From: Nostoc punctiforme PCC 73102
GTDB lineage: Bacteria > Cyanobacteriota > Cyanobacteriia > Cyanobacteriales > Nostocaceae
Assembly (NCBI RefSeq): GCF_000020025.1
Contig: NC_010628.1
Coordinates: forward strand, 2,610,001-2,642,000
Length of the DNA: 32,000 nucleotides
Direction of reading: 5' to 3'
Position 1 is the stretch's first letter. Every line of letters starts with the position of its first letter. Below the pieces are notes generated by a model that was not told where the DNA came from, ran no database searches, and saw only the letters and a list, made by a program, of their open reading frames with translations. Positions 7,101-30,377 of this stretch are shown here, piece after piece. The translations under genes were made by a program, and so were the position numbers.

Positions 7101-7426
7101 ATATTAATTAATGATTTTTTATGAGATCCTAAATAAGGAATTAAACCTGCCCGAATCAATGATGATTTGCCAGTGTCTGATGCTCCTAAAAGCAAGAGTA
7201 CATTATCTTTTTTTAAGCGATCGCCCAGATTAGCAATCCACTTCTCCCGACCAAAAAAGTTGTCTTTATCTTTAAGTTCAAAAGTTTTTAGTCCTAAGTA
7301 GGGAGAGTCTGTTTTAAGTGGACGACAATGAATGTCCTCAAAATTACTGTCAGAAAAAAAGTCGTATTCAGAAATACCTTGGACATTATACCCAATATTT
7401 ATATCGCCTTTAGAACTGTTAACCAT
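4172..7426 (-). CDS. STAND (NACHT/nSTAND-type) P-loop NTPase fused to 14 WD40 repeats
   Basis: ATG at 7426 preceded by GGAG. The N-terminus has SPYLGLKTFELKDKDNFFGRE followed by Walker A LLLGASDTGKSSL (about nt 7165-7200) and Walker B-like VLIFIDQFEELF. I count 14 repeats of the type GHExxVNSVAFSPDGxxIxSxSxDxTxRLWD, enough for two 7-bladed propellers. A C-terminal W/C-rich tail follows. Confidence 0.9.
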   Translation of the reverse strand: MVNSSKGDINIGYNVQGISEYDFFSDSNFEDIHCRPLKTDSPYLGLKTFELKDKDNFFGREKWIANLGDRLKKDNVLLLLGASDTGKSSLIRAGLIPYLGSHKKSLINISFHPDESPFKSIYQCLASTFGKKSPIADIAREIRANTLIKIVTFLKQDYQHVLIFIDQFEELFTKTQKPERDKFVASLFQLFQQQDSSVKIVLTMQSDFLDRFSEYPQLAKIHDRYSRIVTRMSDGELKLAIAEPAARNGVTFEQGLVEQIIHDFHQQNDYLPLLAYTLNLLWEKENIANRVLKTKTYKELKEQTFGYLSEQANQFINASVGWRDRQEQEIQKLNLALTELKLREQSARVLNLLPVQPLEGLVLAIQTMGENLEKYPNQLLAPVLGSLKEAMNTPTEANSLRGHEQEVNCVAFSPDGKFIASGSSDSTLCLWNIIGNPTAQFLCGHEQEVNCIAFSPDGKFIASGSIDGILCLWDLQGNLITQPWQGHEEGVISVAFSPNSDGCANPSGVSIVSVGFDGTVCLWDLQGNAITQPWRGHKEGVISVAFSPNGDCIISVGFDGTVCLWDLEGNTITQPWHKHEAKIICATFSPDRKFIVSGGSDSTVRLWDIQGNPIGQPWHGHEGHVNSVAFSPDGKFIISGSCDRTIRLWNINGNSITQTWRGHEGEVNSLAFSPDGKLIISGGDRTVRLWELHQILQDRVIGRSQRKYENWVNSVAFSPDGQWIVSASNDSTIRLWDSNGNPTGQPWQGHEKEVNSVAFSPDGQWIVSASNDSTIRLWDSNGNPIGQPWQGHEKEVNSVAFSPDGQWIVSASNDSTIRLWDSNGNPIGQPWQGHEKEVNSVAFSPDGQWIVSASNDSTVRLWDSNGNPTGQPWQGHEKEVNSVAFSPDGQWIISASNDSTIRLWDSNGNPIGQPWQGHEKEVNSVAFSPDGQWIISASNDSTIRLWDSNGNPIGQPWRGHEYWVNSAAFSPDGQWIASGSLDGTVRLWHCGWQEWLQVCCNRLHYHPVFQNPENGSDLEIAHQTCQKYVWNPQFPKQLHNQGAAKLKEKAFSAALEDFKLTVQLNFISHWKDRLAWQSVPTENQ
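4560..5300. repeat. Tandem array of about six 126-bp (42-codon) near-identical WD40 repeat units inside the STAND-WD40 gene
   Basis: The unit start GGTTGACCA(A/G)TGGGG recurs at 4560, 4686, 4812, 4938, 5064 and 5190, an exact 126-nt period. Units 4560/4686 are identical to each other, as are units 4938/5064. The others differ by a few substitutions. Confidence 0.95.
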
Positions 7427-7629: not shown

Positions 7630-7752
7630 GCGAATATAATTCGCAGGTACACAGGCGAAGTCCACCTCCGTGGACTAATGAAAAAGTAAGAATCTTAACC
7701 CGCGCAGGCGGGTTTTGTCTGTATAGCCGCGACTTCTAGTCGCCAAGACTAG
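7630..7752. repeat. Cluster of consecutive short hairpin-forming palindromes (cyanobacterial MITE/SDR-like intergenic repeat)
   Basis: GCGAAT-ATA-ATTCGC (7630-7644), AGTCCAC-CTCC-GTGGACT (7659-7676), AACCCGC-GCAG-GCGGGTT (7697-7714), GCGAC-TTCTA-GTCGC (7729-7743) and the overlapping CTAGTC-GCCAA-GACTAG (7736-7752). Confidence 0.6.
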
Positions 7753-7830
7753 TTTTAAATACCTTTATTCAGCAAAATTACTTAAGTAACTTTCAAAAAT
7801 ATGTAGTAACTTTATCCTAAAACGCCAAAA

Positions 7831-9714
7831 ATGACAAACGGGATGGAACTTTTTGATAACCTACACCTTGCTATGTTTAGCGGCAAAGGTGGAGTCGGAA
7901 AAACGACAATCTCCTGCACCTTTGCATGTCGTTGGGCGCAGAAATTTGCTAATGAGCAAATTCTTTTAATCTCAACCGATCCGGCTCACTCTCTTGGAGA
8001 TGTCTTACAAGTTAGCGTTGATGACATTCCTCGTCCCATAGCGGAACTACCCAATCTACTAGTAAGGGCTTTGGATGCAAAGCGTCTGCTACAAGACTTT
8101 AAAGAACGTTATGGTCAGGTTTTAGAACTGTTAGTGGAGCGCGGTAGTTTTGTTGAAGGAGAAGACTTGTCTCCAGTTTGGGATTTAAATTGGCCTGGAC
8201 TGGACGAATTGATGGGTTTGTTAGAGATCCAACGCCTTTTAAACGAGCAGCAGGTAGATAGAGTAGTAGTTGATATGGCTCCTAGCGGTCATACTCTCAA
8301 CTTGTTTGGATTGATGGATTTTTTAGACACTTTCCTCCACTCTCTTGAACTGTTTCAAGAAAAGCATCGGATTATTAGCAAGACCTTTGCTGGAAGTTAC
8401 ACACCCGATCGCGCTGACGATTTTTTGCAAACCCTGAAAGCTGAACTGTCACAAGGTCGTCGTCTGCTTCAAGATCCCACCCATACAGCTTGTTTGTTAG
8501 TTGCGATCGCCGAACCAATGAGTTGGTTGGAGTCAAAACGATTCCTAGAAGCCTTACAAACCATGCAGATTCCTTGCGGAGGGTTGTTTGTTAACCAAGT
8601 CCTTGCCAGTGCGACTGACCCAGATCGTTACCAAGAACAACAACCACTTATCGGCCAGTATACGGCTCTTGCTAACGAAAAGCCGATGTTTATTGTGCCA
8701 CAGCAAGATGAGGAGCCTTTAGGGATTCTAGCCCTCAGCCATCTGATCGACCAAATCCATGTTCCTCAGCTTGAACCGCTATCTTTTATCGATCTACTCC
8801 CAGTTCAATGGCCGGAAACAATTCCTCCTAGCTTTGGAGATTTTCTCACCAAAGGTCGTCGCCTGTTACTAATTGGCGGTAAGGGTGGAGTAGGCAAAAC
8901 CACAGTAGCAGCTGCCATTGGTTGGGCTATGGCTCAACAACATCCCGATCGCAAAATTCGTATGGTTTCCATCGATCCAGCCCACTCCTTGGGCGATGCC
9001 TTTGGTCTGAGTTTAGGACACGAACCATATCAAATAACTGCTAATCTTCGAGGTCAGGAAGTAGATGGCGATCGCATTCTCGATCAATTCAGAGCCGATT
9101 ACCTGTGGGAACTGGCCCAAATGATGAGTGGCGAAACCCAAACAAGCGAAACTATTGAAATGGCCTATGCTCCTGTTGCTTGGCGTAAAATTGTCGATCA
9201 AGCTTTACCAGGAATTGATGAAATGCTTTCTCTGTTAACAGTAATGGAATTGCTAGAGCAACAAGAAGAAGACTTGATTATTTTAGACACTGCTCCTACA
9301 GGTCATCTTCTGCGTTTTCTCGAAATGCCAACTGCACTAGCAGACTGGCTAGCTTGGATTTTCAAACTCTGGATCAAGTATCAGAATGTCCTTGGTCGTA
9401 CAGAATTTATGGGGCGTTTAAGAACTTTGCGACAGCGCGTGGTTAAAGCCCAAAAAGTCTTAAAAGACCCACAACAAACAGAGTTCATTGGGGTTACACT
9501 TAACCAGGCTAGTGTACTTGCCGAACAACAACGCCTGTTCAAATCTATGCAAGAAATAGGTGTGAGCCAGAATTACGTTGTTCTCAACCGCTTTACTTCT
9601 ACAGCAACCATTAATTGCGATTTTCCAGGTTTGACAATGGTTCGCTTACCAATGCTTCCTCGCTCAGTTCAGCCTTTAGAACGCATCCAAGCAGCAGCCG
9701 GCTGTTTATTTTAA
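7831..9714 (+). CDS. Tandem (pseudo-dimeric) ArsA/GET3/TRC40-family ATPase
   Basis: There are two homologous halves. Half 1 has FSGKGGVGKTT, STDPAHSLGD and VVDMAPSGHTL. Half 2 has IGGKGGVGKTT, SIDPAHSLGD and ILDTAPTGHLLRFL. Confidence 0.9.
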   Translation: MTNGMELFDNLHLAMFSGKGGVGKTTISCTFACRWAQKFANEQILLISTDPAHSLGDVLQVSVDDIPRPIAELPNLLVRALDAKRLLQDFKERYGQVLELLVERGSFVEGEDLSPVWDLNWPGLDELMGLLEIQRLLNEQQVDRVVVDMAPSGHTLNLFGLMDFLDTFLHSLELFQEKHRIISKTFAGSYTPDRADDFLQTLKAELSQGRRLLQDPTHTACLLVAIAEPMSWLESKRFLEALQTMQIPCGGLFVNQVLASATDPDRYQEQQPLIGQYTALANEKPMFIVPQQDEEPLGILALSHLIDQIHVPQLEPLSFIDLLPVQWPETIPPSFGDFLTKGRRLLLIGGKGGVGKTTVAAAIGWAMAQQHPDRKIRMVSIDPAHSLGDAFGLSLGHEPYQITANLRGQEVDGDRILDQFRADYLWELAQMMSGETQTSETIEMAYAPVAWRKIVDQALPGIDEMLSLLTVMELLEQQEEDLIILDTAPTGHLLRFLEMPTALADWLAWIFKLWIKYQNVLGRTEFMGRLRTLRQRVVKAQKVLKDPQQTEFIGVTLNQASVLAEQQRLFKSMQEIGVSQNYVVLNRFTSTATINCDFPGLTMVRLPMLPRSVQPLERIQAAAGCLF

Positions 9715-9759
9715 CGGCTAATTAGACTAAATACTTCCATACCCAAAGAGAAATTTATT

Positions 9760-10044
9760 ATGCATCGCACTCCAAACCGCAGACAAATTCAAGCCAAACT
9801 TAGCACCATGCCTCCTCAACGTTCTCAAGCAACAGTTTACTTAAATGCTTACAAAATGATGTTAGAGAAGGAGCGTTTAGAGGAGGAACTAGAGAAACTC
9901 GAAGCACGCCGACATCAGATTCAGCAGCGTCTTGCTATTTTAAATAGTCAAACAATTCCTGAAGAGAACATGACCCATCAGCAAGCAAATACTGACTTAG
10001 AAAACAATACACCAAAATTCAACACCCTAACATTGGAATACTAA
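9760..10044 (+). CDS. Small coiled-coil protein, possibly GvpV-like gas vesicle accessory protein
   Basis: A 94-aa ORF 45 nt after the ArsA-like gene. It has a basic N-terminus and then a heptad-rich segment YLNAYKMMLEKERLEEELEKLEARRHQIQQRLAILN. The resemblance to cyanobacterial GvpV is from memory only. Confidence 0.45.
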   Translation: MHRTPNRRQIQAKLSTMPPQRSQATVYLNAYKMMLEKERLEEELEKLEARRHQIQQRLAILNSQTIPEENMTHQQANTDLENNTPKFNTLTLEY

Positions 10045-10120
10045 GTACTAAGATTTCAGCTTGTCTATATCATTCTCATTCCCTTTGCTCTCTATTTTAG
10101 GAAATAAAACCCTGTACATA

Positions 10121-10564
10121 CTAGTGTGAAGTATGCAAACTACGATCTGGCATAGTTGTTTTGAAAAATCTAACGTCAGTAAAATTTGCTTTATCTGTAA
10201 TAGCATCAGTAAAGTTCGCAAGGCTAAAATCTGTTTTTATAGGTTCTACTATATTCCCCATAGTTTTTTCGTAAGGGCTAAAATCAGCACTGCTTAAATT
10301 AGCCTCAGTAAAATACGTTGATAATAATTTAGCTCCTTTGAATTTAGCCCTCACTAAATTAGCTTTATCAAAATTAGCTCCTGTTAAATTGCATTTATTA
10401 AAGTTAACATTAGCTAAATTAGCACCTGTAAAATTTCTATAAGAAAAATCTTGTCCAGAAAGGTCAGCATCGCTAAGATCGGCTTTAAAGTTTGGATCTA
10501 AGTCCACTTTATTGTTCCACTCCTCTCCATTTTGCAGTAAGCTCAAGTGTATTCTGTTAGCCAT
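10121..10564 (-). CDS. Pentapeptide-repeat protein
   Basis: Runs of A(D/N)Lxx pentapeptides (ADLSDADLSGQDFSYRNFTGANLANVNFNKCNLTGANFDKANLVRAKFKGAKL...). I prefer the ATG at 10564, preceded by GAGG, over the listed GTG at 10627. Confidence 0.85.
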   Translation of the reverse strand: MANRIHLSLLQNGEEWNNKVDLDPNFKADLSDADLSGQDFSYRNFTGANLANVNFNKCNLTGANFDKANLVRAKFKGAKLLSTYFTEANLSSADFSPYEKTMGNIVEPIKTDFSLANFTDAITDKANFTDVRFFKTTMPDRSLHTSH

Positions 10565-10675
10565 TTTTTTTACCTCAAAAAATAAGTATAAATGTACTAT
10601 ATCACAATTCAGCTTTGCGCTAGGCACGAAAATTTGTTGCTTAGTTATTTCTTACTTCTACTCAATTGCCTAAAA

Positions 10676-11077
10676 TTAGCCAGATAGCTTCACAAGGAAT
10701 GAAGAATCGACATCTAAAAGCCAATTCTCATCAATAAATTCTAGATTTTCATCATAAACAAGAACCAATTCACCAAGTTTTTGAGCATTGCTACTTGCAG
10801 TTTTCGTATTATCAACAGCATCAGCTATGAGCAAAAACTTTAGTTGTAAAAAACGTTCTTTGTAAGTAACGCCTATTGAACTGCTAACTAATTCGGCTTT
10901 TAGGGTACGAGGTAACGTAATTTTCTCATAATACTCATCTTGTTCATCCCAATAGCCACACACTTTATAATCACACTGATCAAGATGTTCTTGAACAAGA
11001 AGATTAGCATCTAAACTTTGTAATATTTCAGTTAAATCTTGCCAAAGTTGATGATTTTTTAATTCGAGTCTTGTCAT
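10676..11077 (-). CDS. Hypothetical acidic protein (133 aa), no family recognised
   Basis: A clean ATG ORF 12 nt downstream of the 102-aa ORF on the same strand. It is D/E-rich, AT-rich and contains no HIP1 site. Confidence 0.55.
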   Translation of the reverse strand: MTRLELKNHQLWQDLTEILQSLDANLLVQEHLDQCDYKVCGYWDEQDEYYEKITLPRTLKAELVSSSIGVTYKERFLQLKFLLIADAVDNTKTASSNAQKLGELVLVYDENLEFIDENWLLDVDSSFLVKLSG

Positions 11078-11089
11078 ACTTATGTGGGT

Positions 11090-11398
11090 TTAATGTTCTG
11101 TTACCAAACCAGGGAAGTGCAATATACCATCAATGAATTTTGCATGAAATCGGCGGTCGCCACCTTTACCTAAGACTTTAGATTTCAAATCGTAACCAGA
11201 TTCTTGGGAAGGCACCAACCCAACATTACCGCGAGGAGTTACAAGCCCTTTCTCAATGGCTTTTAAATGTTTCCCCTTCCGATCATATTTTAATCCCAGC
11301 TTTATTTGTTCACTGCCAAATAAAACTAGCAGACCACTGATTGAAAGATATACAGTATCTGGTTGAATATCTGCCCAATTATCGGGTAAAGCTTCCAT
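11090..11398 (-). CDS. Hypothetical basic protein (102 aa), no family recognised
   Basis: An ATG ORF that comes first in an apparent three-gene minus-strand unit with 10676..11077 and the pentapeptide gene. Confidence 0.55.
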   Translation of the reverse strand: MEALPDNWADIQPDTVYLSISGLLVLFGSEQIKLGLKYDRKGKHLKAIEKGLVTPRGNVGLVPSQESGYDLKSKVLGKGGDRRFHAKFIDGILHFPGLVTEH

Positions 11399-11467
11399 TA
11401 AATTAATACTTGTACAGTAGAAGCATAATTTATTTAAGTATAATAGCTAACAAAATTTTTAAAATTA

Positions 11468-11494
11468 ACGTGAGTCTCCAACGGAGGCGCACGT
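11468..11494 (-). terminator. Candidate intrinsic terminator downstream of gvpG
   Basis: ACGTGAGTCTCC-AAC-GGAGGCGCACGT forms about 11 pairs (one mismatch, one G-U). On the minus strand it is followed by TAATTTTAAAAATTTTG. It lies 39 nt after the gvpG stop. Confidence 0.4.
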
Positions 11495-11532
11495 TAGTTA
11501 AAGCAATAAATCACACAAGCTAGGAAAGAATT

Positions 11533-11787
11533 TCAATACTCTTGTGTTTGATCGCGTTCCTCCTGTTCTGCTTCCAGAATCGCTAATAAAAGAGCTTCTT
11601 CCTGAATTTCAAACTCTTCTTCAGGAATTTCCCCCATATCAAAAGCAAGTTGGAGTGCAAGAAGCTGCTTGCTCAGATTTTCTTTATCATCAATTTCAGT
11701 ACTCGCCTGTTCTAAAATTTTTTCCCCAAGCCACGTTACCCCCATTAATGGGCCAGTAATCGGTAATAGTAAGAAGCGCAGAACCAT
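11533..11787 (-). CDS. gvpG: Gas vesicle protein GvpG
   Basis: An 84-aa protein with a hydrophobic N-terminus LLLPITGPLMGVTWLGEKI followed by an acidic helix LLALQLAFDMGEIPEEEFEIQEEALLLAILEAE, which is the typical GvpG pattern. It is divergent from gvpN. Confidence 0.85.
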   Translation of the reverse strand: MVLRFLLLPITGPLMGVTWLGEKILEQASTEIDDKENLSKQLLALQLAFDMGEIPEEEFEIQEEALLLAILEAEQEERDQTQEY

Positions 11788-12001
11788 ATTGCTTTACACC
11801 TGTGTGGATTTATTAAAGGTATCCTTTCAAGACCGTAATCATGCTGATGACATAAATATTAAACATTACTAGTCTTGTGTTGATACCAAAATCCGTTGGA
11901 TTTGAGTCCAGTTAAGGCTGATTGACATCTGTATTTTATATTTGCAGTGTAACAAAAAATACTTTTGTATGACACATTACTATTGAGGAGGTACTTAGAG
12001 T

Positions 12002-13174
12002 TTGACAACAGTATTAAATGCATCTCCCCAACGATTTGTCAATACACCTGCGGTTCAACGCATCGCTCAACGTGCTTTGCGCTATCTACAGTCAGGTTTT
12101 TCAATACACTTACGTGGTGCAGCCGGAGTCGGAAAAACTACTCTGGCAATGCATCTAGCTGATTTGCTCAATCAGCCGATCATCCTCTTATTTGGAGATG
12201 ATGAGTTTAAAACCTCAGACTTGATTGGTAATCAATTAGGTTATACCCGTAAAAAGGTTGTTGATAACTTCATCCACAGCGTTATCAAAGTTGAGGATGA
12301 AGTCCGACAACATTGGGTTGATGCACGATTAACCTTAGCTTGTAAAGAAGGATTTACGCTGGTTTACGACGAATTCAATCGATCGCACCCGGAGGTAAAT
12401 AACGTTTTACTCTCCGTACTTGAGGAGAGGTTGTTAGTATTACCAACAAACCAACATCGAGCCGAGTATATCCGGGTTCATCCTCAGTTTCGGGCAATCT
12501 TAACATCAAATCCTCAAGAGTATTGTGGAGTTCATGCAACTCAGGATGCTTTGATGGATCGTGTTATTACCATCGATATGCCTACACCTGATGAACTGAG
12601 TCAGCAGGAAATTGTAGTTCATAAAACAGGTATAGATTCTGAGAAAGCAGAAGTAATTGTCCGCATAGTACGGACGTTTTGGAGTCGATCTGGCTCTGGA
12701 CAGGGCGGTGGATTGCGTTCCTGTCTGATGATTGCCAAAATCTGCCACGAACATGAAATTTCCGTAAACCCTGGAGATCCTAGCTTCCAAGATATTTGTG
12801 CCGATATCCTGCTTTCTCGCACGAATCAACCTCTCATAGAAGCAACTCGACTACTGGAAGAGGTTTTAAGTGAATTCTATCATCGTATAAATACTCAATC
12901 TCAGCCGTCAGAGATAATACCAAACAACCAAAATCAGATTGTATTGGAACAACGAGTACCTTACGAGCATGAAGTCTACAACTACCTATGTAATTCTCCA
13001 GGAAGGCGTTTCTCTGAATTGGCAGTAGAGTTAGGGATCGATCGCAGTCAAATTGTCGCTGCACTCAAGTCTCTCAGGGAGCAGGGAGTATTAGTCCAAA
13101 TGCAGGGCAATGCCGAGTCGCCGAGCATATCACAAACAGTTGCTTTTGATTCTGGCCATTTAATAAACAAATGA
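12002..13174 (+). CDS. gvpN: Gas vesicle AAA+ ATPase GvpN with a ~100-aa C-terminal extension carrying a winged-helix-like segment
   Basis: TTG start 10 nt after GAGGAGG. Walker A is [17 protein letters not shown] and Walker B is [15 protein letters not shown], with [10 protein letters not shown] further on. The stop overlaps the gvpJ start (ATGA at 13171-13174). Confidence 0.9.
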
Positions 13175-13521
13175 GTACTAATACTAACCGGGGAGCTATC
13201 ACCACATCAACTCAAGGTTCTACCTTGGCAGATATTCTAGAACGGGTTCTGGATAAAGGCATTGTTATCGCAGGAGATATTTCTATTTCCGTAGGCTCCA
13301 CAGAATTGCTCAACATCCGGATTCGTTTGTTGATTTCTTCTGTTGATAAAGCCAAAGAGATTGGAATTAACTGGTGGGAGAGCGACCCCTATCTTAATAG
13401 TCAAACTCGCACCTTATTAGCAACTAATCAACAACTTCAAGAGCGTCTTGCCAGTCTAGAAACAGAACTGCAATCGCTCAAAGCACTCAATCCTATTAAT
13501 CATCAGAATGCAGGCGATTAG
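13171..13521 (+). CDS. gvpJ: Gas vesicle protein GvpJ (GvpA/J family)
   Basis: [51 protein letters not shown] is a GvpA/J-type core. It is translationally coupled to gvpN. Confidence 0.85.
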
Positions 13522-13942
13522 CAAATCAAAAGGTTCCGATTCCGGTTTAGCGCCGTTGTTACTGACGGTTGTTGAACTGATACGCCAACTCATGGAAGCT
13601 CAGGTGATTCGGCGCATGGATGCTGGCACTCTCAACGACTCTGAGCTAGATCGGGCTGCCGAAAGCCTGCAAAAGCTTGAACAGCAGGTTGTTCAGCTTT
13701 GCGAGATATTTGATATTGACCCAGCCGATCTAAATATTAACTTGGGTGAAATGGGAAATTTACTTCCCCAATCTGGAGGATACTACCCCGGTGAAACCTC
13801 TAGTCAACCCTCTATTCTAGAACTCCTCGATCGCCTATTAAATACTGGTGTTGTGGTTGAAGGCGACTTGGACTTAGGACTGGCTCAGTTAAGCTTAGTT
13901 CATGCCAAGTTAAGATTAGTACTCACCTCTAAACCCCTGTAA
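13508..13942 (+). CDS. gvpK: Gas vesicle protein GvpK
   Basis: GLAPLLLTVVELIRQLMEAQVIRRM...DPADLNINLG...LELLDRLLNTGVVVEGDLDLGLAQLSLVHAKLRLVLTSKP matches cyanobacterial GvpK closely. It overlaps gvpJ by 14 nt. Confidence 0.9.
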   Translation: MQAISKSKGSDSGLAPLLLTVVELIRQLMEAQVIRRMDAGTLNDSELDRAAESLQKLEQQVVQLCEIFDIDPADLNINLGEMGNLLPQSGGYYPGETSSQPSILELLDRLLNTGVVVEGDLDLGLAQLSLVHAKLRLVLTSKPL

Positions 13943-13978
13943 CTTTTTTATCTACATTCTTCTTGGTAAGACATTTAT

Positions 13979-14722
13979 ATGAGTTTTTACATTTATGGAA
14001 TTTTGACCTTGCCTGCTCCACAAAATTTAAATTTAGAGGGCTTAGATCGGCAACCTGTACAAATTAAAATTTTGGATGATTTTGCAGTCATCTACTCGGA
14101 AGCACAGCAAGAGCGTTATTTGGCCAGCCGTCGTAACCTGCTAAGTCATGAGAAAGTCCTTGAGGAAATCATGCAAGCAGGCGATCGCTATTTACTGCCC
14201 GTGCAATTTGGACTTTTGGTTTCAAGCTGGGAAACGGTTTCGCAGCAATTAATTCGTCCTCATCAAGAAGAATTGACGCAATTGCTTGCGAAGTTATCGG
14301 GTTGCCGAGAAGTTAGTGTCAAAGTTTTTTGGGATACCGAGGCAGAAATTCAGGGACTATTAGCAGAACACCCAAATCTCAAAACCGAAAGGGATAAGCT
14401 AGTGGGTCAACCCCTGAGTATGGAGCGGGTAATCCAAATAGGGCAAGTCATCGAACAGGGAATGAGCGATCGCAAGCAAGGCATCATAGATGTATTTAAA
14501 GGCACGCTCAACTCCATTGCGATCGAGGTGGTGGAAAATACTCCCCAAGTGGACACAATGATCTACAATTCAGCCTACCTAATTCCTTGGGAAGCAGAAT
14601 CACAATTTAGCGAACACGTTGAATCACTCGATCGTCAATTTGAAAACCGTTTGCGAATTCGTTACAACAATTTCACTGCCCCGTATAACTTTGCTCGTCT
14701 TCGATTAACCACTTCCAACTGA
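13979..14722 (+). CDS. gvpF: Gas vesicle protein GvpF (GvpF/L family)
   Basis: Motifs are YIYGIL at the N-terminus, ERYLASRRNLLSHEKVLEEIM, LPVQFGL and the C-terminal RIRYNNFTAPYNFA. Confidence 0.85.
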   Translation: MSFYIYGILTLPAPQNLNLEGLDRQPVQIKILDDFAVIYSEAQQERYLASRRNLLSHEKVLEEIMQAGDRYLLPVQFGLLVSSWETVSQQLIRPHQEELTQLLAKLSGCREVSVKVFWDTEAEIQGLLAEHPNLKTERDKLVGQPLSMERVIQIGQVIEQGMSDRKQGIIDVFKGTLNSIAIEVVENTPQVDTMIYNSAYLIPWEAESQFSEHVESLDRQFENRLRIRYNNFTAPYNFARLRLTTSN

Positions 14723-14796
14723 TTAATTCCTCTCTCTGTTCAACAGCAATAAAAATTGAGAATCAAAAATTATTGAAACTTTTAATTTTTCGTAAC

Positions 14797-14960
14797 AGGC
14801 CTTACGCAATAACTCTCTAAAACTCTTATTTATCTGCGTCCTACCCTGCGGGAAGCCACTTCTCTACGAGACGCTCCGCGAACGTGTCTATGCGTCCTTC
14901 TCCCAAGGGGAGACGCTAACGCGAAGGCGGTTCGTTTTTTCATTATTTTGCGTAAGTCCT
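14797..14960. mobile_element. MITE-like 164-bp element with imperfect terminal inverted repeats
   Basis: AGGCCTTACGCAA (14797-14809) matches the reverse complement of TTGCGTAAGTCCT (14948-14960) at 12/13 positions. The interior carries the dispersed core CTTCTCTACGAGACGCTCCGCGAACG (14859-14884), which is also present at 7543-7568. There is no coding capacity. Confidence 0.45.
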
Positions 14961-15003
14961 ATGAAAATAAAATTTTTCTTTGCCTTTTATTTAAGTAAAA
15001 TCA

Positions 15004-16827
15004 ATGGACGACATATTTAAAGGATTTGAACACCTATTAGAAATTGCCAAAGCTTTAGAAGAAAAAGTAGAGAAAGGCGAGTTAAAAACTTCTATTCAAA
15101 TTCGCTCTCATAATCTCAGTAGTATTCCCCGGCAAGGCAATATTCCGAGAACAAGTAATTCTAGCCGAGTCCGATCCAATTCCACCGTTGGCACTACACC
15201 AATGGATGATACTGATGTTACCCCCCCATCAGCTCGGACGAACTCAAAAGCTGCTTGGCAAGGTATCGGCGGCTTGGCTGATGTTCTCCAAGAAATCAGA
15301 GAGTTAGTTGAAATTCCACTTAAACGTCCAGATTTATTGGTGAAATTAGGGTTAGAGCCTCCGCGTGGGGTTTTGCTCGTTGGCCCGCCTGGTACGGGAA
15401 AAACTTTAACAGCCCGTGTTTTGGCAGAAGAGTTAGAGTTAAACTACATTGCCATCAATGGCCCAGAGGTGATGAGCAAGTATTACGGGGAAGCAGAAGC
15501 TCGTTTGCGAAGTATTTTTGAGAAAGCAACTCGTTCTGCTCCCTGCCTGATATTTATTGACGAAATTGACAGCCTTGCCCCAGATCGCAGCCAAGTGGAA
15601 GGTGAAGTTGAAAAAAGACTAGTGGCGCAGTTGCTTGGGTTAATGGATGGGTTTGCCAAAACCGAGGGCGTACTTGTATTAGCGGCAACAAATCGTCCCG
15701 ATTATCTCGATCCGGCGCTGCGTCGTCCGGGACGCTTCGATCGCGAAGTTCAGTTTCGGGTTCCCGATCGCGATGGACGATTGGAAATTCTCACGATTTT
15801 AACAAGTGCCATGCCCTTGGAGACTTCGGTTAATTTAGGAGCGATCGCTGATTTGGCTGTCGGTTTTGTTGGTGCCGATATCAAAGCTCTTTGCCAAAAA
15901 GCAGCTTACATTGCCCTTCGTCGTCAAGTCCCCTCACTCAACAGCCCCGTTCCTGAGAACATGACTATCGTACAGCAGGATTTTCTCGAAGCAATTAAGG
16001 AGATAAAACCCTCAGTTCTCAGGGATGTAGCAATTGAAGTACCGAGCGTCAGTTGGGATGACATTGGTGGTTTGGATGATGTGAAACAAAAACTTCAAGA
16101 ATCTGTAGAGGGCGCACTCCTCTATCCCGAACTATACGAGCAAACAAAAGCCAAGCCTCCCCGTGGGATTCTGTTGTGGGGGTCGCCTGGAACGGGAAAA
16201 ACCTTACTTGCAAAAGCGATCGCTTCTCAGGCTAGAGCCAACTTTATTGCTGTGAATGGCCCGGAATTACTCAGCCGATGGGTAGGTGCAGCAGAACAGG
16301 CAGTCAGAGAACTTTTTCGCAAAGCTCGGCAAGCAGCTCCTTGCGTTGTGTTTATAGATGAAATTGATACCCTGGCACCAGCACGGGGACGATTCACTGG
16401 TGATTCTGGAGTTAGCGATCGCGTTGTTGGTCAACTGCTCACCGAACTGGATGGGTTGCATGAATGCCCGAAAGTACTGTTAGTAGGAGCAACCAATCGT
16501 CCAGAAGCGCTCGATCCTGCCTTGCTCAGAGCAGGAAGATTGGACTTACAAATAAAAATCGATCTACCAGATCGAGCCAGCCGATTAGCGATTTTACGAG
16601 TTCACAATCTAGATCGTCCCCTGGTTGATGTCGATTTAGAAACCTGGGCGACAGTTACCGAGGGTTGGAATGGAGCAGACTTGGCTTTGTTGAGCAATCA
16701 AGCTGCTTTAAGCGCCATTCGTCGATACCGCGCCCAAGGATTGACTGACTCCAGCTTGATTCAGATTACAAATGATGATTTCCAAGTTACATACCAAATG
16801 CTTGCTAATCAGCATCAATCTCAATAG
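15004..16827 (+). CDS. Cdc48/p97-like ATPase with two AAA+ domains and no recognisable Cdc48 N-domain
   Basis: D1 has GPPGTGKT and LIFIDEIDSLAP. D2 has GSPGTGKT and VVFIDEIDTLAP. Both are followed by ATNRP...LDPALRRPGRFD / LDPALLRAGRLD. The first ~90 aa are a short helix plus an S/T/N/R-rich linker. Confidence 0.9.
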   Translation: MDDIFKGFEHLLEIAKALEEKVEKGELKTSIQIRSHNLSSIPRQGNIPRTSNSSRVRSNSTVGTTPMDDTDVTPPSARTNSKAAWQGIGGLADVLQEIRELVEIPLKRPDLLVKLGLEPPRGVLLVGPPGTGKTLTARVLAEELELNYIAINGPEVMSKYYGEAEARLRSIFEKATRSAPCLIFIDEIDSLAPDRSQVEGEVEKRLVAQLLGLMDGFAKTEGVLVLAATNRPDYLDPALRRPGRFDREVQFRVPDRDGRLEILTILTSAMPLETSVNLGAIADLAVGFVGADIKALCQKAAYIALRRQVPSLNSPVPENMTIVQQDFLEAIKEIKPSVLRDVAIEVPSVSWDDIGGLDDVKQKLQESVEGALLYPELYEQTKAKPPRGILLWGSPGTGKTLLAKAIASQARANFIAVNGPELLSRWVGAAEQAVRELFRKARQAAPCVVFIDEIDTLAPARGRFTGDSGVSDRVVGQLLTELDGLHECPKVLLVGATNRPEALDPALLRAGRLDLQIKIDLPDRASRLAILRVHNLDRPLVDVDLETWATVTEGWNGADLALLSNQAALSAIRRYRAQGLTDSSLIQITNDDFQVTYQMLANQHQSQ

Positions 16828-16829
16828 AG

Positions 16830-16871
16830 GACAGAAGACAGAAGGCAGAAGACAGAAGGCAGAAGGAAGAA
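16830..16871. repeat. STRR-type heptanucleotide tandem array (GACAGAA/GGCAGAA, six units)
   Basis: It reads gacagaa gacagaa ggcagaa gacagaa ggcagaa ggaagaa, starting 3 nt after the AAA+ stop codon. Confidence 0.9.
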
Positions 16872-16983
16872 TTTTCATGCTTGATTGTGCGAAAACTAGG
16901 CATGAATAGCTTACTTGAAAAAACGCAGAAGTTCAGAGCGGAAGCTACTTAAGTTATGTTACTAAAGTAAATTTAACTTAAAC

Positions 16984-17039
16984 CCTCTTCCCTCCTGCCT
17001 CCTGCCATCTGCCTCCTGCCTCCTTCCTGTCTCTTGCCT
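16984..17039. repeat. STRR-type heptanucleotide tandem array (CCTCCTG and variants, about eight units), inverted relative to 16830-16871
   Basis: It reads cctcttc cctcctg cctcctg ccatctg cctcctg cctcctt cctgtct cttgcct. The reverse complement CAGGAGG differs by one base from the rotated left-array unit CAGAAGG. Confidence 0.9.
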
Positions 17040-17073
17040 CATCCCAACTGCAAATATTTACGCCGTTTTACTT

Positions 17074-17763
17074 ATGTCAATATACGCTTATGCTCTTCTA
17101 GTCCCCACCGCATCACCGCTTGTTCTACCTTTAGGGATGGAAAGAAATACCGAACTAGTTTACTCTTCTGGTTTAGCTGCTCTCGTAGAGCCGGAAATCT
17201 CACTGGAGGCAATACAGGCAACGGATGAGCGTTTACTTCAAGCTGTATTAAACCACGATCACGTAATTCGAGAACTTTTTCAACAAACTCCCCTTCTTCC
17301 CCTACGCTTTGGGAGGGGTTTTACCTCTGTAGAAAAACTGCTGAATCATCTAGAAAACCACCAAGAGCAATATCTAGAAACCCTAACTCAGCTAGCAGAC
17401 AAAGTTGAGTACAGTGTAAAAGTGACAGCCTGTTCTTTACTTGACGATTCTGACACTATTGATGCCAGGGGAAAAGCCTATTTATTAGCTAAAAAACAAC
17501 GCTACCAAACACAGCAAGCATTTCAAGCACAACAATGCGAACAGTGGGAACTCTTGAACGAGTTAATTCTCAAAACATATACAAATGTTATCTGTGAAAC
17601 TCGACAGTCAGATGTGCGGCAAATCCACTTTTTGGCACAACGCAACGATTCAACGCTCAGTACGCAACTGTTTTCCCTCTGGCAGGTACAATGCTCGCAC
17701 TGGCAATTGGCACTGAGCGAACCTCTACCACCGTATCATTTTTTAAAAAATACTCTCATATAA
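17074..17763 (+). CDS. Second GvpF/GvpL-family gas vesicle protein (cyanobacterial GvpW/GvpL-like)
   Basis: N-terminus IYAYALL, then AALVEPEISLEAIQATDERLLQAVLNHDHVIRELFQQTPLLPLRFG, the characteristic GvpF/L N-domain pattern. Confidence 0.8.
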   Translation: MSIYAYALLVPTASPLVLPLGMERNTELVYSSGLAALVEPEISLEAIQATDERLLQAVLNHDHVIRELFQQTPLLPLRFGRGFTSVEKLLNHLENHQEQYLETLTQLADKVEYSVKVTACSLLDDSDTIDARGKAYLLAKKQRYQTQQAFQAQQCEQWELLNELILKTYTNVICETRQSDVRQIHFLAQRNDSTLSTQLFSLWQVQCSHWQLALSEPLPPYHFLKNTLI

Positions 17764-17896
17764 ATTCATAAAAAATCATATTTAAAACTTTCCCAGAAAA
17801 TATAAAGATGAGATAATTTTTTCTTTAATTTTTGTCTAAAAAAATATTGTGAACTTTTTAGTATTTTTTTATTTTGTTATATTTATCTCATTTTTT

Positions 17897-17905
17897 GGGA
17901 ATACT
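17897..17905 (+). promoter_or_regulatory. Candidate SigJ-type 'J-box' (-10 region) promoter element for gvpA
   Basis: A perfect GGGAATACT lies in an otherwise very AT-rich 238-nt spacer, 97 nt upstream of the gvpA ATG. As I recall it, this matches the J-box consensus GGGaAtacT described for SigJ-dependent hormogonium promoters of Nostoc punctiforme. Confidence 0.45.
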
Positions 17906-18001
17906 AAACCCAGGAAGAATAAAACACATTGTGTAAGTTTTACCTACTGCTCAATCAGAGCAAGATGAAATAAATAATTAGAGTTGTGAGAGAAAAAGAA
18001 A

Positions 18002-18223
18002 ATGGCTGTTGAAAAAGTTAACTCATCTTCAAGTCTGGCTGAAGTTATTGACCGCATCTTGGACAAAGGAATTGTAATTGATGCTTGGGTACGTGTTTCT
18101 TTAGTTGGTATTGAACTGCTATCAATAGAAGCTCGGATTGTTATTGCTTCAGTTGAAACTTACTTAAGATATGCTGAGGCGGTTGGTTTAACATCTCAGG
18201 CTGCTGTTCCATCTGCTGCTTAA
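18002..18223 (+). CDS. gvpA: Major gas vesicle structural protein GvpA
   Basis: [63 protein letters not shown] is almost invariant cyanobacterial GvpA. Confidence 0.97.
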
Positions 18224-18239
18224 TAGCACATTATAAAAA

Positions 18240-18258
18240 GGGAGTCTTCATGGCTCCC
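18240..18258 (+). terminator. Stem-loop between gvpA and the GvpC-like gene (candidate attenuator / partial terminator)
   Basis: GGGAGTC-TTCAT-GGCTCCC gives a 7-bp stem including one G-U pair. It is followed by ATTTAATGTTTC and lies 17 nt after the gvpA stop. Confidence 0.35.
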
Positions 18259-18298
18259 ATTTAATGTTTCTAGTTAACAAAATAGGAGATTTCAGCTG

Positions 18299-19006
18299 AT
18301 GGCTCTCAAGAATTTATGGGAACAAGAGCGATCGCAGCGATTACAAATAACTGCTGAACGCCGTCAACAAGTTAACCAGTGGAAACAGCTAACTCAACAA
18401 GAATTGCAGTTGCAAGCAGATATGCTTCATCAAGAATTGAGCAGTTTTGTTACCAGCCTTCACAACGATAGGAACTTACAACAGCAGCAATTTCAGCAAG
18501 AGATTGTAGAGCGGCAATTGGAAATATTGCAAATAAAAACTGATGTCTGGCAACGTCAGCAAGAATACCGCCAACAGCGGGCAGTAAAGGCTCAGGCATT
18601 ATTCCAAAACTTGCAAAATTTCCGGGCAATCTTACATAACAGTGTTTTGGGCGATCGCAGTCAAGAACAAGCAGTTTCCCCACCTCCTGCTAAAGAAGAG
18701 AAATTAGTTGCAACAGTTCCAAAATGGTCAATCTCCCGTTCTGCAATTAAAGCCACTGGTTTCCGTGCTTCCGTCAATACCATGACTAAGAAAGTGCCTG
18801 CCTTGAATGCAGATACTGCTAAATCTAAAGTGCAGCAATACATTCAGCAAGCTGAAGGAGCTACTCTGATAGAAATTGAAGAGGTTATAGGCTTAAGCCG
18901 GGTGCAAACGATAGATATCCTGCGCTCCTTGATCAAGCAAGGGATACTGGAACAACGCGATCGCCAATACTTTATTCGGCAACAAACAATTTCTGGACAA
19001 ACTTAA
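18299..19006 (+). CDS. GvpC-like Q-rich helical protein fused to a C-terminal winged-helix-like domain
   Basis: It occupies the gvpC position immediately after gvpA. The N-terminal ~118 aa are Gln/Arg/Glu-rich with GvpC-like segments (LWEQERSQR..., HQELSSFVTSL, RAVKAQALFQNLQNFRAILHNSVLG). The C-terminus reads ATLIEIEEVIGLSRVQTIDILRSLIKQGILEQ. GGAG lies upstream of the ATG. Confidence 0.55.
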   Translation: MALKNLWEQERSQRLQITAERRQQVNQWKQLTQQELQLQADMLHQELSSFVTSLHNDRNLQQQQFQQEIVERQLEILQIKTDVWQRQQEYRQQRAVKAQALFQNLQNFRAILHNSVLGDRSQEQAVSPPPAKEEKLVATVPKWSISRSAIKATGFRASVNTMTKKVPALNADTAKSKVQQYIQQAEGATLIEIEEVIGLSRVQTIDILRSLIKQGILEQRDRQYFIRQQTISGQT

Positions 19007-19247: not shown

Positions 19248-19454
19248 GAAAAAGAGCTTAAATCTTTGTTCAAGCTTCTGGCTTTGAACTTTAAAAATAT
19301 CCATATTAGAAAGGGATATAACAAGCTGGAATAGCTCAATCAAGGTTTTGAACTGTGCTATTGGCAATCGCGCAATAAAGTTAGTAAGCTGGATTGTTTG
19401 AGCAATTTTAATGTAAATGCAAAACTTAGTATATATAAGGAGGTGCGATCCATT

Positions 19455-20786
19455 GTGAATCAATTGATTGAGCAACTTCAAACTAAATTATTCACAGGTA
19501 GGCTGAATCTTGAAGCAAGGGATGGGCCGACTTGGACGCTATATTTTCGCTTAGGACGATTAATTTGGCAGGCTGGTGGTTCTAATGCCGATGAGCGATG
19601 GCGACGACATTTGTTGCGCTACTGTTCTAATGTGGATGTGACACAGTTGGAGCAGCTTGTCTCTCCCCAGGAAAATTATCGCGAGTATTCCATTCTTGCT
19701 AAGTTGCGAGAACAAAAATTAATCGAACAACAACAACTTGTTAGTCTGATTGCAAGCTCAATAGCTGAAGTCCTGTTTGATATCATGCAGTACATTGAAG
19801 CCAAAAGAAATGGCGACAATCCAGCAGGGCAGTTGTCACATACTACCGTTGTTGGTGAAGTTCCTGGGGTTCTCCTAGCTGTAATACCAACTGAGGAAGT
19901 CTTGAAACGGGCTACACAAGCCTGGCAAGAATGGCGAGATGCAGGACTGGCAACCTACTCGCCCAATTTATTTCCGATCATTCAACAAATTGAGTTACTC
20001 CAAGGACAAGCATCCTCTAAACAGATTATTGCTCTAGTTGATGGAACAAAAACTTTACGAGGTCTAGGGCAAAAAAGCGGTCGGGATGTCTTAGCTTTGA
20101 CTCGGTTATTGATGACATTGGTAAAAACAGGGGCGATCGCTTTTTCACCTATCCCAAAGCTCAGGCAGGTTGTGATTAGTAAAGAAACTGGCAACCCGTC
20201 CAGTGCAGTTAATAATTCCAATTCTTCACTCAAGACAGAAGAGGACACTGTTTTACAATTTGCACCCAATTTCAATAAAGTTGTTCCCCCAGCGACTAGT
20301 AAAGAAATTGTCAGTCCGTCTAGTGCAGTTAATAATTTCAATTCTTCACTGAAGAAAGAAGAGAACACTGTTATACAAGTTGCCCCCCCAGCAGCTAGCA
20401 AAGCAATTATTGATCTCTCAAGACCTTTAGTAGCATGTGTGGATGATAGTCCAACGATCTGTCGCAGTTTAGAGGAAATTATGACCCATCAAGGTTATCG
20501 CTTTGTTGGCATTCAAGATTCCTTGACGGCAGTTTTAAACCTAATTAAAAGTAAGCCAGACTTCATTTTTTTGGATCTATTGATGCCAAAAGTAAATGGC
20601 TATGAAATTTGTTCTCAAATCCGTAAAACTCCAAGTCTCAAAAATGTGCCGGTTGTCATCTTAACGGGGAAAGATGGAATAGTAGATCGGATGCGAGCAA
20701 AATTAGTAGGAGCAACTGACTTTTTGGGTAAACCTGTAGAAGCAGACAAAGTACTCAATATGCTTCACAAGTATTTAACCGTTTAG
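19455..20786 (+). CDS. PatA-type response regulator (N-terminal PATAN domain, low-complexity linker, C-terminal receiver); PixG/PtxA/HmpA-like
   Basis: The PATAN-like N-terminus is FTGRLNLEARDGPTWTLYFRLGRLIWQAGG. The C-terminal REC reads LVACVDDSPT...FIFLDLLMPKVNGYE...FLGKP. I prefer the GTG at 19455, 11 nt after AAGGAGG. The listed TTG at 19398 is an alternative start. Confidence 0.85.
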   Translation: MNQLIEQLQTKLFTGRLNLEARDGPTWTLYFRLGRLIWQAGGSNADERWRRHLLRYCSNVDVTQLEQLVSPQENYREYSILAKLREQKLIEQQQLVSLIASSIAEVLFDIMQYIEAKRNGDNPAGQLSHTTVVGEVPGVLLAVIPTEEVLKRATQAWQEWRDAGLATYSPNLFPIIQQIELLQGQASSKQIIALVDGTKTLRGLGQKSGRDVLALTRLLMTLVKTGAIAFSPIPKLRQVVISKETGNPSSAVNNSNSSLKTEEDTVLQFAPNFNKVVPPATSKEIVSPSSAVNNFNSSLKKEENTVIQVAPPAASKAIIDLSRPLVACVDDSPTICRSLEEIMTHQGYRFVGIQDSLTAVLNLIKSKPDFIFLDLLMPKVNGYEICSQIRKTPSLKNVPVVILTGKDGIVDRMRAKLVGATDFLGKPVEADKVLNMLHKYLTV

Positions 20787-20932
20787 GTTAAAGCGACAGT
20801 CATACCAGTGGCTCCTCTACATCCATTTTCAAAACCGATTGTGGATGGAAAATTGCTTCCTAAATCTAGCTTGGTGTTAATTTATTTGTCGCCATTATTT
20901 TTCAAATTCTGAATTAAATAGTTAGGAAAAAA

Positions 20933-21295
20933 ATGAAAAAAGTTCTTTTAGTTGAAGATAGCCTCACAGAATCCGAAAAGATGACACGTTACCTAGAGCA
21001 AGGAGGATATTCAGTTTATGAAGTTCGTAGTGGTGAAGAGGCTCAACTGCGGTTGAAACAACAAAAACCTGACTTGATCTTACTGGATTTGATTTTGCCA
21101 GGCCAAAGTGGATTTGAGTTCTGCCGCAAGTTGAAAGCCGATCCGACAACAAAAGGAATTCCGGTAGTGATTTGCTCAACTAAAAACACAGATGTTGATA
21201 GAACTTGGGGCAATATGAGTGGCGCTGATGGCTATTTAGTCAAACCTGTAGACGAAAATACCTTGCTCCAAACTGTTAGTAAATTTATTCGCTAA
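20933..21295 (+). CDS. Single-domain CheY-like response regulator (PixH/PilH-like)
   Basis: A 120-aa protein with VLLVEDS, LILLDLILPGQSG and YLVKP receiver motifs. Confidence 0.9.
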   Translation: MKKVLLVEDSLTESEKMTRYLEQGGYSVYEVRSGEEAQLRLKQQKPDLILLDLILPGQSGFEFCRKLKADPTTKGIPVVICSTKNTDVDRTWGNMSGADGYLVKPVDENTLLQTVSKFIR

Positions 21296-21309
21296 AGGAA
21301 ACTGGGGCA

Positions 21310-21843: not shown

Positions 21844-21975
21844 AGTTCAGAGCTTCCTATACAACGCCAAGGGCGGATGCACAAAGGCTTCTGGACGCTG
21901 AAGCCGTTCTAAAAAAATTAGCCCCCTGAAGCATTCTACTTATTAACTCCGACAACCTTCATAGCAAGAAAGATC

Positions 21976-27213: not shown

Positions 27214-27228
27214 TCTCGCAAAACTGTT

Positions 27229-30357: not shown

Positions 30358-30377
30358 CCCTCATCTTGTAAATTGCT

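Follow-up and report, generated by a model that had tools for sequence, protein, structure and literature searches.

ArsA-like and Cdc48-like ATPase genes as conserved neighbours of gas-vesicle genes in Nostoc punctiforme and other cyanobacteria

We analysed a gas-vesicle locus that carries two ATPase genes in addition to gvpN. It lies in a 32,000-nucleotide stretch of Nostoc punctiforme PCC 73102 (the window; contig NC_010628.1, positions 2,610,001 to 2,642,000 of the forward strand), in which the interval 7831-19006 is the hormogonium gas-vesicle (gvp) locus, Npun_F2147-F2160. The locus itself is already known as a published hormogonium-specific gas-vesicle cluster. Besides the gvp genes, it contains genes for a tandem ArsA/Get3-type ATPase (ArsA-like) and a tandem-AAA Cdc48/VAT-like ATPase (Cdc48-like), whereas GvpN is listed as the sole ATPase in gas-vesicle reviews and in the Anabaena 7120 study. 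An earlier reading of the bare sequence (the original prediction) described the interval as a rearranged, plausibly hormogonium-type variant cluster that had recruited extra energy-dependent functions, with repeats marking the junctions of an inserted AAA gene. Gene calls were based on an open reading frame (ORF) listing and on Pfam and NCBIfam scans of the window proteins; the names GvpV, GvpC and GvpW were taken from the UniProt records of N. punctiforme PCC 73102, in which seven of the ten proteins looked up were exact matches. These records label the two ATPases simply "ArsA family ATPase" and "AAA ATPase".

Linkage of the ATPase genes to gvp genes

The ArsA-like and Cdc48-like genes were found to be conserved gvp neighbours across cyanobacterial orders, in at least four arrangements, and usually adjacent to each other. 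An orthologue-specific metagenome scan, which started from the conserved motif at the N-terminus of the AAA protein, returned 74 loci. At least two gvp core genes were present in the stretch around 29 of the 62 full-length Cdc48-like orthologues. Linkage was observed at 29 of the 40 evaluable Cdc48-like loci and, after dereplication at 95% identity, in 21 of the 31 evaluable clusters. The ArsA-like gene was adjacent to the Cdc48-like gene in 42 of the 62 cases, with a median gap of 105 base pairs (bp). In the ATPase tree after dereplication, the context types were interspersed.

The arrangements differ between lineages. Oscillatoria FACHB-1407, Oculatella, Crinalium, Allocoleopsis and several Leptolyngbya-type genomes carry a divergent pair, ArsA on the minus and the Cdc48-like gene on the plus strand, directly upstream of gvpA-C-N-J-K-F-G. 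The pair is close to gvp genes in a different order in Okeania, and in Planktothrix mougeotii A-C-N-J-K-F-G-V-W leads straight into ArsA and the tandem AAA gene. About 25 of the 74 metagenome loci had the order ...N-J-(X)-K-F-G-V(-)-W-ArsA-Cdc48, and cluster look-ups assigned these W-ArsA-Cdc48 loci to Aphanizomenon/Dolichospermum flos-aquae, Cylindrospermopsis/Raphidiopsis, Chrysosporum, Aetokthonos and Brasilonema/Tolypothrix. The pair is not peculiar to the Nostoc variant; classic bloom-formers carry the same two genes. The statement that GvpN is the only ATPase of planktonic clusters therefore does not hold, because Planktothrix, Aphanizomenon/Dolichospermum flos-aquae, Cylindrospermopsis, Chrysosporum and others carry both genes directly after gvpW. 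Likewise, the association of the extra ATPases with gvp genes stands, whereas their special recruitment by this variant does not, since planktonic clusters have the same genes.

Two further gene associations were observed beside the ATPase genes. In Leptolyngbya-type lineages, an ORF of 86-87 amino acids follows the Cdc48-like gene and often overlaps its stop (22 loci; for example L002 11968-12231, L003 11854-12114 and L160 11878-12141); it is absent from the window. In Pantanalinema (L064, L070) this ORF lies just upstream of gvpA, though the Cdc48-like ATPase is elsewhere. Where gvp genes are not adjacent, fraC, fraD and a gene for an ABC2-type membrane protein, which could be fraE, recur beside the ArsA-like or the Cdc48-like gene (L084 11959-14473, L160 6852-9704, L092, L096, L098, L137 and L139). 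Gene order suggests that an older arrangement may have been fraEDC-ArsA / Cdc48-s87-gvpA...

With gvpN as the anchor, a scan covering one genome for each species gave 80 loci, onto which the window proteins were mapped. The Nostoc-type set comprised 57 loci, from about 55 species genomes and 4 metagenome contigs. Its order is STAND(-), ArsA, V, a variable insert and G(-), then N, J, K, F, Cdc48, W, A and C on the other side of the divergence, followed by the ptx phototaxis locus; it was seen in about 55 Nostoc-clade species, including Desmonostoc, Mojavia, Dendronalium, Amazonocrinis and Aulosira. The genes of the window follow this order (positions are those of the whole window).

7831-9714, plus strand: tandem ArsA/Get3-type ATPase, Npun_F2147, 627 amino acids (PF02374 twice; TIGR00345 358 bits, cutoff 135)
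9760-10044, plus strand: gvpV, 94-amino-acid coiled-coil protein (UniProt name GvpV)
10121-11398, minus strand: variable insert of three genes unrelated to gvp, a pentapeptide-repeat gene and two family-less ORFs (Pfam)
11533-11787, minus strand: gvpG, divergent from gvpN (PF05120, E 1.6e-23)
12002-13174, plus strand: gvpN, AAA+ ATPase (TIGR02640 383 bits, cutoff 267)
13171-13521, plus strand: gvpJ, with a 4-nucleotide ATGA overlap with gvpN (PF00741; NF046090 GvpJ)
13508-13942, plus strand: gvpK with a C-terminal GvpA-like domain and a 14-nucleotide overlap with gvpJ (PF05121 residues 7-86, PF00741 residues 102-140)
13979-14722, plus strand: gvpF (PF06386, E 2e-64)
15004-16827, plus strand: tandem-AAA Cdc48/VAT-like ATPase, Npun_F2157 as inferred from the gene numbering, 607 amino acids (two PF00004 domains, two lid domains)
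17074-17763, plus strand: gvpW, second GvpL/GvpF-family gene, 229 amino acids (PF06386, E 2e-32; UniProt name GvpW)
18002-18223, plus strand: gvpA, sole copy, Npun_F2159 (PF00741, E 3e-17)
18299-19006, plus strand: gvpC, 235 amino acids, Q-rich coiled coil (named GvpC by NCBI and UniProt)
19398-31403, plus strand: ptx phototaxis chemotaxis-like locus with PatA-type regulator, CheY, CheW, GAF-rich methyl-accepting chemotaxis protein (MCP), 1042-amino-acid ORF and CheW (Pfam; gene calls of locus L001)

The ORF and family scans agreed with the original prediction on gene content, order, strands and both gene overlaps, as well as on the single distal gvpA, the second GvpF/L-family gene and the GvpC-like gene. 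The core accessory genes gvpN, gvpF/L, gvpG, gvpJ and gvpK were all matched, TIGR02640 above its cutoff, PF06386 twice, and PF05120, PF00741 and PF05121. The gvpA gene is Npun_F2159 according to Klicki et al. 2022 (PMC9127174), and the window GvpA is 89-100% identical to the GvpA of more than 100 loci. In planktonic-type clusters, the place of gvpV between gvpG and gvpW is taken by homologues of 34-55% identity, and GvpC has positional homologues, at 24-35% identity, that are encoded between the gvpA and gvpN genes of other clusters. The count of non-canonical NTPases falls from three to two, since GvpN is canonical and the nSTAND1-WD40 NTPase lies outside the interval at 4172-7426.

The Cdc48-like gene lies between gvpF and gvpW in 56 of the 57 Nostoc-type loci. 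The gene order of the window is the standard of the Nostoc clade and not a local rearrangement; it is the rule among the 57 loci and not the product of a repeat-driven local event. Compared with the cyanobacterial gvp clusters of Anabaena/Dolichospermum flos-aquae, Microcystis and Anabaena PCC 7120, the locus shares the gene set A, C, N, J, K, F, G, V and W, a GvpA that is approximately 90% identical, a GvpK with the same GvpA-like tail and, in many taxa, the same two ATPase genes. It differs in that gvpA(n)-C-N-J-(X)-K-F-G-V-W is permuted to ArsA-V ... G(-) / N-J-K-F-Cdc48-W-A-C, and in that unrelated genes stand between gvpV and gvpG. In addition, its one gvpA comes after N-J-K-F-Cdc48-W with only gvpC behind, is transcriptionally joined to ptx and has a SigJ J-Box promoter.

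Repeats flank the Cdc48-like gene on both sides, a miniature inverted-repeat transposable element (MITE)-like element and arrays of short tandemly repeated repetitive (STRR) heptamers, the latter located with Tandem Repeats Finder (TRF).

14797-14960, no strand assigned: MITE-like element, 164 nucleotides, terminal inverted repeats GGCCTTACGCAA / TTGCGTAAGTCC (sequence reading)
16826-17040, no strand assigned: two inverted STRR heptamer arrays (16826-16871 and 16983-17028) around a 111-nucleotide core (TRF)

The original prediction had reported these elements correctly and had read them as insertion or rearrangement junctions of a Nostoc-specific variant cluster with recently acquired ATPases. 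Their position beside the Cdc48-like gene in N. punctiforme fits that account, as does Nostoc sp. C117 (L021), the sole Nostoc-type locus without this gene, in which the 383-bp gvpF-gvpW gap (12745-13128) holds both MITE-like ends. The C117 loss is the only support for repeat-driven change, and it indicates that the repeats may promote local deletions. We nevertheless consider a recent acquisition very improbable. The same order recurs in the 57 Nostoc-type loci, some of which have spacers of no more than 76 and 23 bp, both ATPases stand beside gvp genes in planktonic and Leptolyngbya-type cyanobacteria, and the groups of the ATPase tree match the sets of gvp order (Nostoc, planktonic-type and Leptolyngbya-type), with no sign of recent transfer. 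Across the Nostoc-type loci, the spacer from gvpF to the Cdc48-like gene ranged from 76 to 454 bp and that from the Cdc48-like gene to gvpW from 23 to 425 bp. Whole or partial copies of the MITE-like element occupy the same gvpF-Cdc48 spacer in some Nostoc loci only; the STRR block was found in a subset of close relatives and was absent where the Cdc48-gvpW spacer was 23-63 bp. Because the spacers vary so widely and the repeats are strain-restricted, the MITE-like and STRR elements are secondary fillers of variable spacers and not scars of gene acquisition.

The left part of the locus is less uniform. The three minus-strand genes at 10121-11398 split the gvp cluster between gvpV and gvpG, and the contents of this gap vary: L001 (Desmonostoc, 5137-5936) has a GNAT acetyltransferase and a TacA-type antitoxin, and other Nostoc genomes have different subsets of ORFs. 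To judge by these contents, the gvpV-gvpG gap is an insertion hotspot. Neither ArsA nor gvpV was present within 10 kb in six Nostoc loci with full flanks. The conserved left neighbour throughout the Nostoc clade is an nSTAND1 NTPase fused to 14 WD40 repeats (4172-7426, minus strand); six to seven of its 126-nucleotide repeat units are 93-98% identical in DNA, which suggests that the repeats may have been homogenised recently. On the right, in the ptx locus, the linker of the PatA-type response regulator (20174-20387) contains a 94-nucleotide direct repeat, 86% identical, at 120 nucleotides start to start. The 1745-amino-acid MCP (22583-26082) has approximately six GAF-domain repeats spaced at 549-636 nucleotides, and its L001 homologue shows GAF domains and MCPsignal in the gene calls. 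The 1042-amino-acid ORF occupies the CheA position of the locus. An Rfam scan of the whole window at the gathering threshold gave no matches.

Family and motifs of the two ATPases

The ArsA-like protein passed the Get3/TRC40/ArsA model TIGR00345, and its best match in the Protein Data Bank (PDB) was ARSA1 of Chlamydomonas (5zme, E 6e-50). It has two GKGGVGKT P-loops and two DPAHS motifs, and the switch motifs (DPAHS, DxAPTGH) are intact in both halves. The ArsA equivalog TIGR04291 failed (212 bits; cutoff 650), there is no Cys in residues 34-220 or 250-595, and none at the positions with which E. coli ArsA binds the metalloid. We therefore read the protein as a putative Get3/ARSA1-type ATPase without the arsenite-binding cysteines. 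The deviant Walker A P-loop and the switch motifs are as in Get3/TRC40 and ARSA1, and the tandem pseudo-dimer is as in ARSA1. Unlike these, it has no known Get1/2-type receptor, and the target that we propose is a gas-facing protein shell, not a lipid bilayer.

Castillo & Saier 2010 (PMC2963123) described two-domain ArsA homologues without arsenite cysteines in gvp clusters of cyanobacteria and other phyla, and proposed that the gvp-associated ArsA energises a step of gas-vesicle biogenesis. The link between ArsA and gvp genes was thus already in print. The window protein resembles their "cluster 4" ArsA, which is tandem, approximately 630 amino acids long, located in gvp clusters and without metalloid cysteines. 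Their survey covered a handful of genomes and left the adjacent Cdc48-like gene unnoticed; the present analysis shows the pairing over many genera.

The Cdc48-like protein scored 679 with TIGR01243, under the cutoff of 802, and only model positions 172-676 were matched; the score falls below the family cutoff because the N-domain is missing. Its best PDB match was N-domain-deleted VAT (5vc7, E 3e-175), with the alignment starting from residue 81 and covering the D1-D2 body. Walker A and B motifs are present in both rings, together with the aromatic pore loops SKYYGEAE (D1) and SRWVGAAE (D2), as in a processive unfoldase. The first approximately 45 residues are strongly conserved, even in copies unlinked to gvp, and residues 1-80 matched no Pfam family. 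These features predict a VAT-like unfoldase without the Cdc48 N-domain and with a conserved 45-residue N-terminus instead. As in archaeal VAT and Cdc48/p97, the D1-D2 rings are tandem classical AAA rings, with pore loops that are aromatic in both rings as in VAT; identity to VAT is approximately 60%, judged by eye over the D1-D2 alignment. Unlike VAT and Cdc48, the protein has no double-psi-barrel N-domain and no C-terminal HbYX, and it carries a 45-residue N-terminal module and a disordered Ser/Thr/Pro-rich linker. Cyanobacteria are not known to have a 20S proteasome partner. Pfam searches at permissive E-values found nothing credible for the AAA N-terminus, GvpV, the 87-amino-acid partner or the two family-less ORFs.

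Could the two ATPases come from unrelated systems, one an arsenite efflux ATPase and the other an IetA-type anti-phage AAA ATPase? The generic ArsA annotation and the PADLOC IetA models, which match each AAA ring, would be accounted for in this way; we regard the idea as scarcely credible. The arsenite pump was rejected on the TIGR04291 score, the missing metalloid-site cysteines and the absence of ars genes: no arsB, acr3, arsD or arsR was found near the ArsA-like gene, and the Pfam scans of the window showed no ars genes. IetAS or another defence role was rejected since PADLOC gave only generic AAA similarity (IetA, TRIP13), the protein has two rings against the single ring of IetA, and no IetS-like protease is adjacent.

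Hormogonium promoters and the GvpK, GvpN and GvpC proteins

Published transcription start site (TSS) data divide the locus into at least three hormogonium-induced transcripts, which start from the ArsA-like gene (sigC), from gvpN (sigC) and from gvpA (sigJ, running into ptx). The promoter strings of Gonzalez et al. 2019 (PMC6495340) were located in the window, with the following elements.

7737-7816, plus strand: published promoter window (-60 to +20) of Npun_F2147, TSS approximately 7797 (exact 80/80 match to Data Set S2A)
11841-11920, plus strand: published promoter window of Npun_F2153 (gvpN), TSS approximately 11901 (exact 80/80 match to Data Set S2A)
17860-17939, plus strand: published promoter string of Npun_F2159 (gvpA) (exact match to Data Set S2A, found by reading)
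17897-17905, plus strand: J-Box GGGAATACT, the SigJ -10 element of the gvpA promoter, 97 bp upstream of gvpA
18240-18258, plus strand: terminator-like hairpin, G+C-rich with a T-rich tail, directly after gvpA and before gvpC (consensus scan only)

In that study, Npun_F2147 (cluster 19) and Npun_F2153 (cluster 20) are hormogonium-upregulated members of the sigC regulon; Npun_F2159 is assigned to the sigJ regulon among the hormogonium-upregulated first genes, and gvpA, upstream of the ptx phototaxis locus, is cotranscribed with it from a SigJ-dependent J-Box promoter (Gonzalez et al. 2019, PMC6495340). Npun_F2147-F2164 were described as one hormogonium-specific block of gas-vesicle and chemotaxis genes (Klicki et al. 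2022, PMC9127174), and according to the literature Nostoc hormogonia form gas vesicles and induce gvpA. The exact promoter strings and the published RNA sequencing data bear out the hormogonium-type gvp system of the original prediction, and the co-induction that it had called for is seen for the ArsA-like gene, upregulated in the same regulon as gvpN.

The loose J-Box pattern GGGNANNNT was not enriched (60 matches; 55 expected); we attach meaning solely to the exact GGGAATACT that precedes gvpA. A second exact copy of GGGAATACT lies at 15121-15129 on the minus strand, antisense in the 5' end of the Cdc48-like gene. Because the plus strand codes there for the conserved Ser-Ile-Pro of the SSIP motif in the N-terminus of the AAA protein, this copy is probably a by-product of coding or chance. 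The hairpin after gvpA could attenuate read-through and so set a high gvpA:gvpC ratio.

The GvpK and GvpN calls of the original prediction were right, and two details of these proteins had escaped it, the GvpA-like domain of GvpK and a winged-helix-like extension of GvpN. The GvpK fusion is also present in L001 (Desmonostoc), L002 (Oscillatoria FACHB-1407), L085 (Planktothrix) and L160 (Leptolyngbya-type), and in this sample it looks like the cyanobacterial norm; it puts a wall-type domain at the extreme C-terminus of GvpK. The extension of GvpN covers residues 321-370 (12962-13111; TrmB E 8e-6, MarR_2 E 5e-5) and is kept in Oscillatoria FACHB-1407. A weak winged-helix-like signal was also seen at the C-terminus of GvpC (residues approximately 181-225, 18839-18973), with helix-turn-helix matches below threshold, and similarity between the GvpN C-terminus and GvpC was undetectable by BLASTP (E 12). 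Pfam, NCBIfam and PDB searches with GvpC gave nothing significant.

Such winged-helix-like C-termini on GvpN and, weakly, on GvpC hint at regulatory contacts, and a regulatory function of the Cdc48-like ATPase may be considered. In haloarchaea, GvpD binds NTP, and the activator GvpE is degraded when GvpD is present (Pfeifer 2022 review). A GvpD-like ATPase would act on a Gvp regulator or on GvpC, by unfolding or removal, and so tune vesicle number or strength while leaving the GvpA wall untouched. We think this improbable: the Cdc48-like protein has no GvpD Pfam match, GvpE is lacking in cyanobacteria, and the tight pairing with a Get3-type chaperone fits hydrophobic clients better.

Proposed role of the ATPase pair

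In the reading that we consider best, the two ATPases would work as a pair, chaperone and unfoldase, dedicated to hydrophobic Gvp proteins; the chances of this reading being right and wrong seem to us balanced. The Get3/ARSA1-type ATPase would shield hydrophobic Gvp segments (those of GvpA, GvpJ, the GvpA-like tail of GvpK or the N-terminal hydrophobic helix of GvpG) and would pass them to the growing vesicle wall. In place of a Cdc48 N-domain, the VAT-like double-ring unfoldase would use its conserved 45-residue N-terminus to recognise substrates, and it would extract subunits from misassembled, aggregated or collapsed vesicles. Such extraction would let vesicles be cleared or recycled, for example when hormogonia turn into vegetative filaments. 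Both ATPases would be accessory and non-essential, because E. coli becomes buoyant with the Anabaena 7120 gvp cluster.

Several observations weigh against a dedicated pair. No gvp gene was found within 10 kb in 10 of the 31 dereplicated Cdc48-like clusters, and 5 of these 10 also lack ArsA. Nostoc sp. C117 retains the cluster minus the Cdc48-like gene, and its 10 kb upstream contain no ArsA, gvpV or STAND gene. In the Chlorogloeopsis-like PCC 7702 lineage (L051, L089), the Nostoc-type order with the Cdc48-like gene and gvpV has no ArsA between STAND and gvpV; the two ATPases are therefore separable. The Anabaena 7120 gvp gene cluster, with a gene list from gvpA to gvpW, rendered E. coli cells buoyant (Cai et al. 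2020), so that the ATPases are probably not essential for assembly. Finally, the gas-vesicle role of either ATPase is inferred, and purely so are its clients and whether it would act in assembly or in disassembly.

The same data bear on the main rival, in which the ArsA-like/Cdc48-like pair is a general machine for the biogenesis and quality control of tail-anchored or other membrane proteins and stands near gvp genes by history or co-expression only. ARSA1, the closest solved relative, directs tail-anchored proteins to the membranes of the chloroplast. In the 10 clusters mentioned above, no gvp genes are near the pair or the solitary Cdc48-like gene, the fraC/D/E filament-integrity genes adjoin the ATPase genes in several loci, and the buoyant E. 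coli supports a general machine as well. Among the unlinked cases, the Cdc48-like gene of Kovacikia minuta stands alone, the ArsA-like gene of Pantanalinema is beside fraC/D/E with the gvp cluster on a separate contig, and at several loci no gvp genes lie within 10 kb of the pair. However, wherever an unlinked case could be checked, gvp genes were still present in the genome or the genus: GvpN and the Cdc48-like protein are in the same genome on different contigs in Leptolyngbya FACHB-671 and FACHB-321, and GvpN is present in a metagenome-assembled genome of the genus Kovacikia. In addition, the gvp linkage is kept through four gene orders across orders, and the ArsA-like gene is hormogonium-induced in the sigC regulon of gvpN, unlike a housekeeping gene. 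Among the best 120 matches, there were no Nostocales orthologues between the Nostoc clade and a tier at approximately 79% identity, which is not the continuum of a housekeeping gene. Therefore, we hold a general machine to be possible and rather unlikely.

Returning to the dedicated pair, we tentatively propose, somewhat short of believing it, an overlooked conserved two-ATPase module comprising a Get3-like holdase/insertase and an N-domain-less VAT-like unfoldase, with the 87-amino-acid partner in Leptolyngbya-type lineages. The module would load and re-extract GvpA-family subunits, and would be a bacterial counterpart of the GET and Cdc48/Msp1 logic that acts on a protein shell in place of a lipid membrane. 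Literature searches on a Cdc48-like or AAA gene with gas vesicles returned only haloarchaeal or unrelated papers, and the pairing of gvp-linked Get3-like and VAT-like ATPases appears to be previously undescribed. What is new here is that these two ATPases travel with gvp genes across cyanobacteria, the locus and the ArsA link having been known before. If the pair chaperones or recycles GvpA-family proteins, it would bear on how a very hydrophobic, aggregation-prone subunit is delivered to a gas-filled shell and on how very stable or collapsed vesicles are disposed of; it may also aid the heterologous production of cyanobacterial vesicles as acoustic reporters.

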